Shown: in pieces, positions 10,013-27,149 of the stretch
Layout: the number at the start of each line of letters is the position of its first letter
Numbering within the stretch: the first letter of the stretch is position 1
Assembly: GCA_013519935.1 (NCBI GenBank)
Contig: JACDUA010000001.1
Coordinates: 91,982 to 123,981 of the forward strand
Direction: 5' to 3'
Source: Ectothiorhodospiraceae bacterium WFHF3C12
Lineage (GTDB): Bacteria; Pseudomonadota; Gammaproteobacteria; Nitrococcales; Nitrococcaceae
DNA length: 32,000 nucleotides
Program-made: the position numbers and the translations under genes
The notes under the pieces: generated by a model
Told to the model about the DNA's origin: nothing
Database searches by the model: none
Seen by the model: the letters and a program-made list of their open reading frames with translations, nothing else

Positions 10013-11108
10013 CTAGAAACCCGCCTTGAGGCTGGCTTCGATGAACTGGTCCAGTGCGCCGTCCAGCACGGCCTGGGTGTTGCCCACCTCAACGCTGGTG
10101 CGCAGGTCCTTGATACGGGACTGGTCGAGGACGTAGGAGCGGATCTGGCTGCCCCAGCCAATGTCGGCCTTGCTGTCCTCCACCTGCTCGGCTTCCTCCC
10201 GGCGTTTCTGCATCTCCAGCTCGTAGAGCTTGGCCTGGAGCTGCTTCATGGCCGTGGCGCGGTTCTTGTGCTGCGAGCGGTCGTTCTGGCACTGAACGAC
10301 GATGCCGGTGGGCAGGTGGGTGATTCGAACGGCCGACTCCGTGCGGTTGACGTGCTGACCGCCCGCACCACTGGCGCGGTAGACGTCCACGCGCAGGTCC
10401 GAGGGGTCGACGTCAATGGCAACGTCGTCGTCGATCTCCGGCGATACGAACACCGCCGCGAAGGACGTATGTCGCCGGTTGCCGGAATCGAAGGGCGACT
10501 TGCGCACCAGCCGGTGCACGCCGGTTTCCGTGCGCAGCCAGCCAAAGGCGTATTCGCCCTCCACTTTCAGCGTGGCGCTCTTGATGCCGGCTACCTCCCC
10601 CTCGGAGAGCTCGATGATCTCGCTGCGGAAGCCCTTGTTCTCCGCCCAGCGCAGGTACATCCGAAGCAGCATGTTGGCCCAGTCCTGGGCCTCGGTGCCG
10701 CCGGACCCGGCCTGGATGTCCACGAAGGCGTTCTTCTCGTCCATCTCCCCGGAGAACATTCGCCGGAACTCGAGGCCGGCGACGCGGCGCTCGTAGCCGT
10801 CCAGATCCGACGCCACCGACGAAACGGTGTCGTCATCGCCTTCCTCAACGGCCATTTCCAGTAGCTCGCCGGCGTCCTCGAGCCCGGAAGTCAGGTCCTC
10901 CAGCGTGCCGACCAGGTCCTCGAGCTGGGAGCGCTCCTTGTTCAGCGCCTGCGCCCGTTCGGGCTCGTTCCAGACGTCGGGGTCCTCGAGCTCGCGATGC
11001 ACCTCTTCGAGGCGTTCCTTGCGGCCGGCATAGTCAAAGATACCCCCTCAGGGACTCGACACGTCCCTTGAGGTCGTCGATCTGCTGGTACAGGGCGTTG
11101 ATCTCCAA
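10013..11108 (-). CDS. prfB: Peptide chain release factor 2, made by a programmed +1 frameshift
   Basis: The main ORF (10013-11002 in the track) has the SPF and GGQ motifs ([27 protein letters not shown]). The upstream frame, from TTG at 11108 (GGGAGA SD), encodes (M)[23 protein letters not shown] followed by an in-frame TGA at 11036-11034. Shifting +1 continues as [29 protein letters not shown], which parallels E. coli RF2. Confidence 0.95.
11033..11048 (-). other. RF2 programmed +1 frameshift site
   Basis: The minus strand reads AGGGGG TAT CTT TGA C. This has the internal SD-like element, the CUU slippery codon and the UGA-C stop context, identical in architecture to the E. coli prfB site. 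Confidence 0.9.
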
Positions 11109-19252: not shown

Positions 19253-20293
<1,041 letters not shown>

Positions 20294-20299
20294 GGGGGG

Positions 20300-20901
20300 T
20301 ATTGCTTTTTTCGAGCTTCCTTTCTCCCGGATTCCGTTCCGGCCTCATCCCTGTCCTGACGCTCCGCACCTCCCTGGCGCATGGTCAGGTTCATTCCCTG
20401 AAAAACGGCTCTGTCCTTTCCCTGCCTTGCCGGGCGTCCTGCCGGCGTCGCGCGAATTCCGTCGCGCATGCCATCCCGGGCCAGTTCCTGGCGTGTGAAC
20501 TCCCTTCACACCCGCCGTCATCCCGACGGCGTTGTCCTTCCCGTCGGACGGCCGTGTTCCTCAAGCCGCCGATCTCAGCGCGCCGACCCGGTGAGGGTCT
20601 CTGATCCGGAGACCCACACACCTCCTGTGCCTTATCCCTGGGCCAGACTTCCAGTCGGGCTGATCCTCGCCCGGCGCGCTTCCCTTTTCCTGCGGCGCGC
20701 CTTCCGGGCGGCCGCGGAGATCGTTAGTATTTCCCGGTCCTTCGGACTGAAATCCCTTCGCTTACGACGCCGCTCCTTCGCGCCGGCCCGCCGTCCCTGA
20801 ACCATCCGCCCCCGAATCCTGTAGAGGGGGTGGGCATCCTTGCCCTCGCTGGGGACAGCGATTCCTTCCTTGATCCGTCCATGTCCTTGCGTCCGTGCTT
20901 G
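20300..20901 (-). ncRNA. Candidate large CsrB/RsmB-like RNA that sequesters CsrA/RsmA (boundaries approximate)
   Basis: The gap has no credible ORF. By manual count the minus strand carries about 40 GGA motifs, against about 8 on the + strand. Many sit in loops of short GC-clamped hairpins, for example GGGC-AAGGAU-GCCC at 20832-20845 and GUGUGAA-GGGAG-UUCACAC at 20493-20511. A perfect GacA-type palindrome and a plausible promoter lie just upstream. The 5' end is inferred from the -10 element. The 3' end is unresolved: a U5 run at 20405-20401 is one option, but motifs continue to about 20310. Confidence 0.65.
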
Positions 20902-20907
20902 GAAACA

Positions 20908-20936
20908 AGATTAGTGATTTCGGAGAGAGCCGTCAT
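20908..20936 (-). promoter_or_regulatory. Candidate sigma-70 promoter of the GGA-rich RNA
   Basis: The minus strand reads ATGACG (20936-20931), a 17-nt spacer, then TAATCT (20913-20908). This sits between the palindrome at 20957-20974 and the first GGA hairpins. Confidence 0.35.
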
Positions 20937-20956
20937 GGTCATCTTTCGGAAGGGCT

Positions 20957-20974
20957 TGTAAGCGAATTCTTACA
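20957..20974. promoter_or_regulatory. GacA/UvrY-type upstream activating sequence (TGTAAG-N6-CTTACA)
   Basis: The exact sequence TGTAAGCGAATTCTTACA is a perfect 18-bp palindrome. It matches the published Gac box consensus found upstream of rsmX/Y/Z and csrB genes. Confidence 0.65.
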
Positions 20975-21075
20975 TCTGCGTAGGGCGGGCGTGATCGGGC
21001 CACGGCCAAATGGCCTGAGGAAGGTCGGGGCCCGGTAACGCAACAGGGCAGATCACGGGCCGGGCCCAATGACGT

Positions 21076-23764
<2,689 letters not shown>

Positions 23765-26819: not shown

Positions 26820-27031
26820 TCGGGTATTCCATTACCATCAAGACCTCGCCGTCCCGGCGCCGTGCCGGGCCATTCGCCGCCTCCCTGAAGACAGGCCGGG
26901 CACCCGTCGGTTCCATACCCCCAAGTGAGCCCCCCATTTACCCGGCGGGGATGCGGGCATTAGGATTGAGCGCTCGCCGGGTACCGGCGCCATCCCGGCT
27001 TTCCGCGGCCCGCTCCGGAACGGCGGACCGC

Positions 27032-27149
27032 CCGGGAACGTCGGCCCGCAGTATACATGAGCCCGGCCTTGTCAGCCGTTCGCCAGGCCGCCGGGAACAC
27101 CGCTCGGCCCATATCGCTCTATTACTGCAGACGAAAGCAGCCCGGGAAC
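27032..27149 (+). repeat. Three direct copies of CCGGGAAC upstream of the DUF482 gene
   Basis: CCGGGAAC occurs at 27032-27039, 27091-27098 and 27142-27149, at spacings of 59 and 51 bp. The last copy is 13 nt before the predicted start codon. Confidence 0.3.

Follow-up and report, generated by a model that had tools for sequence, protein, structure and literature searches.

The stretch of DNA analysed here, a window of 32 kb from Ectothiorhodospiraceae bacterium WFHF3C12, contains a 782-nt gap between a gene for a LysR-family regulator (19313-20293, plus strand) and serS (21076-22353, minus strand). In this gap, which serS precedes on the minus strand, lie an 18-bp palindrome (20957-20974), a promoter-like pair of hexamers and a GGA-rich stretch that appears to be the body of a non-coding RNA, which would run convergently with the LysR gene and whose putative terminator overlaps the 3' end of that gene. 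The rest of the window holds housekeeping genes in a typical gammaproteobacterial synteny (ftsK-lolA-rarA-serS; cysG, a 5'-nucleotidase gene, hrpA and prfB-lysS), together with sdh genes, a nadB-like gene and clpA. Genes for response regulators, hybrid kinases or CsrA were not found within the 32 kb, nor were gacA/uvrY, gacS/barA and csrA found in the related loci compared from close lineages.

Just past the serS stop codon there is a long imperfect GC-rich hairpin (20989-21041) without a U tail, which gave only a chance-level match to an Rfam miRNA model and may be a terminator or attenuator of serS. Elsewhere in the window, the RF2 (prfB) reading frame (10013-11047) has close to its 5' end the motif CTTTGAC (11033-11039, minus strand), the classic +1 programmed frameshift site of prfB and a known feature. 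An 18-nt tandem repeat of 2.5 copies, GCGGCCCGCCCCGGAACG, occupies positions 27005-27049 at the 5' end of a FemAB-like gene.

Three homologous loci were obtained through SerS relatives from a large protein collection, on contigs L081, L082 and L083 (the last being the same as L084), with SerS proteins 92, 88 and 82% identical to that of WFHF3C12. The SerS encoded in the window equals the WFHF3C12 protein at 100% identity. All three share the arrangement of serS followed by box, promoter and RNA, and have a gene-free stretch of 750-975 nt after serS. The convergent gene beyond the RNA again encodes a LysR regulator in L083 and probably also in L081, where the C-terminal peptide matches; the L082 contig ends before this point. 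In L083 the distance from serS to the box is enlarged by ~300-340 non-coding nucleotides (segment 7279-7690) relative to the window, L081 and L082.

The palindrome and the predicted promoter

The sequence at 20957-20974, TGTAAGCGAATTCTTACA, is an exact TGTAAG-N6-CTTACA, a perfect 6+6 palindrome of 18 bp, and is the exact equal of the GacA/UvrY consensus of published work (PMC3171408, PMC8523701). The original prediction, which had proposed this match, was thus confirmed, and in a scan of the 32-kb window allowing up to two mismatches this was the only site returned. With up to three mismatches two other sites joined it, and the three found are at chance level (2.1 expected). Under a model with the base composition of the window (66.7% G+C), exact boxes are expected 5.7e-6 times per 782-nt intergenic region, 2.3e-4 times per window and ~0.03 times per 4-Mb genome, and the first of these figures bears out the earlier statement that such a palindrome is unlikely to occur in this region by chance.

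The box is kept in L081, L082 and L083 with 0-1 mismatch, and the mismatch always falls on the same base of the box (TGTAAG-N6-CYTACA). When these three relatives were compared with the window, mismatches fell on 2/36 half-site positions and on 7/18 spacer positions (Fisher p=0.004), and within the spacer it was the central four positions that varied. Conserved half-sites around a free spacer are the pattern expected for a dimeric helix-turn-helix site. Conservation of the palindrome in related genomes, on which the original prediction depended, therefore holds for all three relatives, and it does so next to non-coding DNA that cannot be aligned. Five nucleotides distal to the box there is a further half-site-like CYTAC (20980-20984, minus strand; CYTAC-N5-TGTAAG), whose columns are invariant while the neighbouring bases vary; it resembles a third half-site and may function as one.

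Downstream of the box on the minus strand we found the promoter-like pair ATGACG (20936-20931) and TAATCT (20913-20908), separated by a 17-nt spacer. Its coordinates had been given correctly in the original prediction, and all homologues have an identical -35 hexamer, while the -10 hexamer is kept as TAATCT or, in L083, as TAAGAT. The -10-like element (20908-20913) is preceded by a conserved C, so that it reads CTAATC or CTAAGA across the homologues, and is followed by the conserved TTGTTTCCAA. The -35-like ATGACG belongs to a larger block of 22 nt, CTTCCGAAAGATGACCATGACG (20931-20952, minus strand), which is invariant in 4/4 homologues and contains an internal direct repeat, ATGAC-C-ATGAC. 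Because this conservation exceeds what a -35 hexamer alone would need, the block may be the site of a second regulator, and we consider it a candidate for either such a site or a promoter-proximal GacA contact. The promoter scanner called no sigma-70-like site on the minus-strand promoter region, since the two hexamers match only 7/12 positions of the sigma-70 consensus. A match of this quality is compatible with an activator-dependent promoter, though it is no evidence for one on its own.

From the conserved -10 element the RNA is predicted to start at ~20901 on the minus strand, which would place the centre of the box at ~-64.5. The original prediction had used the box to set the strand and approximate 5' end of an RNA, and rightly so, as both agree with the position of the GGA-rich, non-coding and hairpin-loop-rich stretch described below. 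It had also put the first GGA hairpins about 65 nt from the box, and the minus strand indeed has its first GGA at 20894, with 63 nt separating it from the edge of the box. The layout recalls csrB, where phosphorylated UvrY footprints an 18-nt inverted repeat, TGTGAGAGATCTCTTACA, and where, in E. coli, a partial extra half-site lies 5 bp from the repeat (PMC4682653), much as a CYTAC is found 5 nt beyond the box here. In csrB, however, the repeat is centred at -183/-182, and IHF assists from a site located between repeat and promoter (PMC4682653), whereas here the centre is at ~-65 and the invariant 22-nt block stands between the box and the -10 element.

The predicted GGA-rich RNA and its putative terminator

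The predicted RNA body (20294-20901, minus strand) extends for ~608 nt from the putative start to the LysR stop codon and contains 42 GGA. Over the intergenic region as a whole GGA occurs 42 times on the minus strand and 10 times on the plus strand, and ANGGA 23 times and 0 times, respectively. These motifs set in sharply with the start: there are 42 GGA in the 612 nt downstream of it and 0 in the 170 nt upstream, and the 600-nt segment beginning at 20301 has a GGA count ~6 SD above the minus-strand mean of the window. The relatives have 34-40 GGA across a downstream segment of 489-611 nt, so that each of the four homologues carries 34-42 GGA at a density of 6.4-7.0 per 100 nt.

The motifs are placed preferentially in predicted loops. 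In the WFHF3C12 RNA, 23/42 GGA fall in loops whose closing stem has 4 bp or more, as compared with 8.2 +/- 2.7 (maximum 18) in dinucleotide shuffles, and the four homologues have 19-23 such loop GGAs each when their shuffles have 6.5-8.5 +/- 2.5. Partition-function calculations gave a similar picture, with an unpaired probability of 0.66 at GGA and 0.27 at other G in the WFHF3C12 RNA, and of 0.54-0.72 and 0.26-0.28 over the four homologues. The sequence context of the motifs is CA-N-GGA, with A enriched at -2 (23/42 sites) and C enriched at -3, and this is the CsrA/RsmA site as described in previous studies (PMC8523701, PMC7911923). The RNA as a whole folds only modestly better than shuffles (z = -2.1), and no long internal repeats were found in it.

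Both ends of the RNA carry conserved hairpins. At the 5' end (20832-20861, minus strand) there are twin hairpins, UCGCUG-UCCC-CAGCGA followed by GGGCA-AGGA-UGCCC, whose pairs are invariant in 4/4 homologues and of which the second shows a GGA in its loop. Towards the 3' end (20327-20342, minus strand) a conserved hairpin, CCGGA-ACGGAA-UCCGG, again with a GGA in the loop, is followed by GAG-AAAGGAAG-CUC. Across the four homologues the pairs of the shared hairpins are mostly invariant and only three are compensatory, so the support that covariation lends to them is weak.

The RNA could not be assigned to a curated family. At the gathering threshold Rfam returned no match in the window; at E<=10 the region 20000-21300 gave chance-level hairpin matches only (miRNA and snoRNA models) and no Csr/Rsm family; and at E<=1 no Csr/Rsm family matched L081-L083, the families considered being CsrB, CsrC, RsmX, RsmY, PrrB_RsmZ and relatives. 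The assignment as a sponge therefore rests on function-like features and not on homology. Because Rfam does not detect the RNA, genome annotation currently misses this presumptive sponge family.

A scan for terminators identified a single terminator-like site on the minus strand, at 20276-20235, consisting of a GC-rich hairpin of 13-14 bp followed by UCUUCUUUGG, with an interrupted U tail. The hairpin is perfect in WFHF3C12, L081 and L083, with U.G<->U-A and C-G<->U.G changes among them, and it is absent in L085, L089 and L090, which lack the RNA, despite the similar C-terminal peptide encoded there. If the hairpin at 20235-20276 terminates the RNA, the transcript would be ~665 nt long. Since this putative intrinsic terminator is antisense within the last 19 LysR codons (20235-20293), the convergent transcripts would be complementary over ~57 nt, and antisense or transcriptional interference of the RNA with LysR expression is possible.

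Conservation of the locus among relatives

Nucleotide identity among the four genomes (WFHF3C12, L081, L082 and L083) varies strongly along the locus. It is 78-84% in the serS coding sequence, falls to 38-47% in the 60 nt upstream of the box, which are unalignable, and rises to 69-85% in the 80 nt from the box to the start. Within the RNA, it is 74-92% over the first 95 nt, 27-53% in the interior and 58-83% over the last 110 nt. Of the alignment columns with a GGA, 11 occur in every one of the four RNAs and 57 in a single one. Because GGA density and loop count are kept while the columns turn over, what selection preserves seems to be how many motifs there are and how they are presented, and not the sequence itself. 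Maintenance of a motif count through sequence turnover is what a sponge function predicts, and the four homologues offer an evolutionary case in which promoter and terminal hairpins stay constant and the interior can change almost freely, with a GGA count that stays near 40 and a maintained loop share.

The distribution of this arrangement is narrow. At the serS locus of relatives whose SerS is 73-75% identical, namely Aquisalimonas (L085, L089 and L090) and Sediminicurvatus (L091), the RNA is absent: the gap after serS measures 24 nt in Aquisalimonas asiatica (L085), 150 nt in L089 and 489 nt, without a box, in L090, and in L091 a different gene adjoins serS. A scan of species-representative genomes with SerS, where the best proteins were 68-69% identical, found the combination of box and GGA-rich region in 0/80 loci. 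A scan of metagenomes with the invariant promoter 20-mer recovered the L083 contig again and two chance matches inside a coding gene. Since the RNA gene is already absent at 73-75% SerS identity, its presence at the serS position is confined to a narrow clade.

Proposed circuit and alternatives

Taken together, we consider it probable (roughly 78%) that the palindrome is a GacA/UvrY-type activating site for the promoter of a CsrA/RsmA-sponge RNA of ~610-665 nt. In the circuit that we propose, a phosphorylated regulator of the GacA/UvrY family would bind the palindrome as an upstream activating sequence, centred at ~-64.5, and would activate an independent promoter made up of the -35 element ATGACG and the -10 element TAATCT, with a start at ~20901 on the minus strand. 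This promoter would drive a non-coding RNA of ~610-665 nt displaying ~40 GGA in the CA-N-GGA context, at least half of which would lie in hairpin loops. The RNA would serve as a decoy that titrates CsrA/RsmA dimers, so that CsrA-mediated control of mRNAs would be relieved when the GacS/BarA-GacA/UvrY phosphorelay is active. We infer that GacA binds the box and CsrA the RNA, and that the WFHF3C12 genome encodes both proteins.

In our view the locus adds one more case to a well-known regulatory circuit and does not represent a new kind of system. Genes for Csr/Rsm sRNAs have been predicted from a GacA box, single-stranded AGGA/ANGGA motifs and a Rho-independent terminator, and csrB1/csrB2 of Shewanella oneidensis and csrB/csrC of Marinomonas mediterranea, which were predicted in this way and later proved to be UvrY/PpoR-dependent (PMC3171408, PMC8523701), share the box and the motifs, and possibly the terminator, with the locus described here. 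Those genes differ in that their RNAs are ~420 nt long, have been validated experimentally and end at intergenic terminators, whereas ours is a prediction from sequence with its putative terminator in a convergent coding sequence. Similarly, rsmX, rsmY and rsmZ of Pseudomonas have the 18-bp palindrome TGTAAG-N6-CTTACA upstream of the sRNA promoter, and the GGA/ANGGA motifs in the loops of their sRNAs sequester RsmA/E (PMC7911923, PMC11611043), while csrB and csrC of E. coli and Salmonella, which are targets of BarA-UvrY/SirA, encode multi-site CsrA sponges (PMC4682653). In contrast to the WFHF3C12 RNA, with its ~610-665 nt and ~40 GGA, the Pseudomonas RNAs are ~110-130 nt long and have 6-10 GGA; neither sequence nor covariance models reveal a detectable similarity between them, and the lineage here is Ectothiorhodospiraceae. 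CsrB, at ~370 nt with ~20 sites, is also smaller than the WFHF3C12 RNA, and RsmB has ~480 nt. The RNA thus looks like csrB or rsmX/Y/Z in function and stands outside the curated families in sequence. What is new lies in the details of lineage, size, evolutionary pattern and a putative terminator embedded in a coding sequence, of which the size and this terminator are unusual, and the regulatory logic is that of the textbook.

Among the alternatives, the one that survives best retains a true CsrA-type sponge but has the palindrome bound by another factor, be it a different NarL/FixJ-type regulator or a factor that recognises the 22-nt block, with no GacS/GacA control. The invariant block and the extra CYTAC do point to additional or alternative factors, and Gac-independent Rsm sRNAs exist, RsmV and RsmW of Pseudomonas being examples (PMC7911923). 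One survey scores UvrY as absent in Thioalkalivibrio: in its S3 Table, Thioalkalivibrio sulfidiphilus and Allochromatium vinosum are BarA+, CsrA+ and FliW- with UvrY scored 0, but the same filter also gives 0 for Legionella, Marinomonas and Halomonas (PMC4682653). The half-sites, however, equal the GacA/UvrY consensus exactly, and it is they that are conserved within the site; moreover, published Gac-dependent genes are marked by just this pairing of a GacA box with a GGA-rich sRNA. Control by another factor is improbable. The wider literature gives some context for the preferred reading, as BarA-UvrY is regarded as characteristic of the gamma-Proteobacteria and has been proposed to transcribe CsrA-antagonist sRNAs throughout the class (Zere et al., PMC4682653), Chromatiales are reported to have BarA orthologues (PMC8639471) and csrA is reported in Thioalkalivibrio nitratis (PMC8092127). 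In the literature searched we found nothing linking Gac/Rsm to Ectothiorhodospiraceae.

A second alternative concerns the partner of the RNA, which might be a protein other than CsrA, or ribosomes contacted through Shine-Dalgarno-like AGGA/GGAG, or the RNA might act mainly in cis on LysR. This would accommodate the putative terminator that overlaps the last 19 LysR codons, with its ~57 nt of complementarity, as well as the lack of homology to known Csr/Rsm families. Yet the CA-N-GGA context, the placement in loops and the 6.4-7.0 motifs per 100 nt fit CsrA sites (PMC8523701, PMC7911923), ~40 sites far exceed what an antisense RNA needs, and the wider family is reported to have CsrA; we therefore regard a non-CsrA partner or a mainly cis-acting role as quite improbable.

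The transcript could also be mainly read-through from serS or derived from its 3' UTR, with a palindrome that is incidental or concerned with serS termination. Although serS lies directly upstream on the same strand and the hairpin that follows it lacks a U tail, the conservation is found in the box and promoter block and not in the serS-proximal spacer, which is unalignable and in L083 ~300-340 nt longer. Moreover, in the window the 170 nt ahead of the predicted start hold no GGA and an exact GacA box is expected only ~6e-6 times by chance, so that read-through is a very improbable source for the RNA. Finally, a reading of the region as a source of small proteins, or as what is left of a decaying gene, with a compositional GGA richness, was rejected and is given a negligible probability: mechanical ORFs of 40-110 aa do exist on both strands, but no ORF is kept in length or frame across the four homologues (the shared ATG opens 72, 7, 41 and 106 aa), the GGA excess is strand-specific (42 vs 10) and ~6 SD above the window background, and the motif count is kept despite an identity of 27-53%.

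If the sponge reading is true, the Gac/Csr circuit (BarA-UvrY to sponge RNA to CsrA) would extend to halophiles of the Ectothiorhodospiraceae type. We also put forward, as a tentative idea that is rather unlikely to hold in full, that the RNA is an independently born and exceptionally large sponge (~40 sites, roughly 2x CsrB), inserted between serS and the LysR gene in a narrow halophilic clade alone, and that its Gac-activated transcription, by convergent or antisense overlap through the LysR-embedded terminator, also represses or trims the LysR mRNA; if so, a single RNA would link global control at the post-transcriptional level with one particular transcription factor.

Some other loci were considered and rejected as sponge loci. 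The GGA-dense windows of L010 and L018 are coding or only modest. L061, from an unrelated uncultured gammaproteobacterium, has a GacA-like box with 1 mismatch, TGTATGCTTTGGCTTACA, in the segment 2379-3243, ~940 nt downstream of serS and beyond an ORF on the opposite strand. This box, however, stands immediately before tRNA-Ser(TGA), after which comes the gene for a GacA/UvrY-type response regulator whose product is 50% identical to E. coli UvrY. The GGA-dense part of the locus lies inside such a regulator gene, and the box may reflect autoregulation or coincidence.
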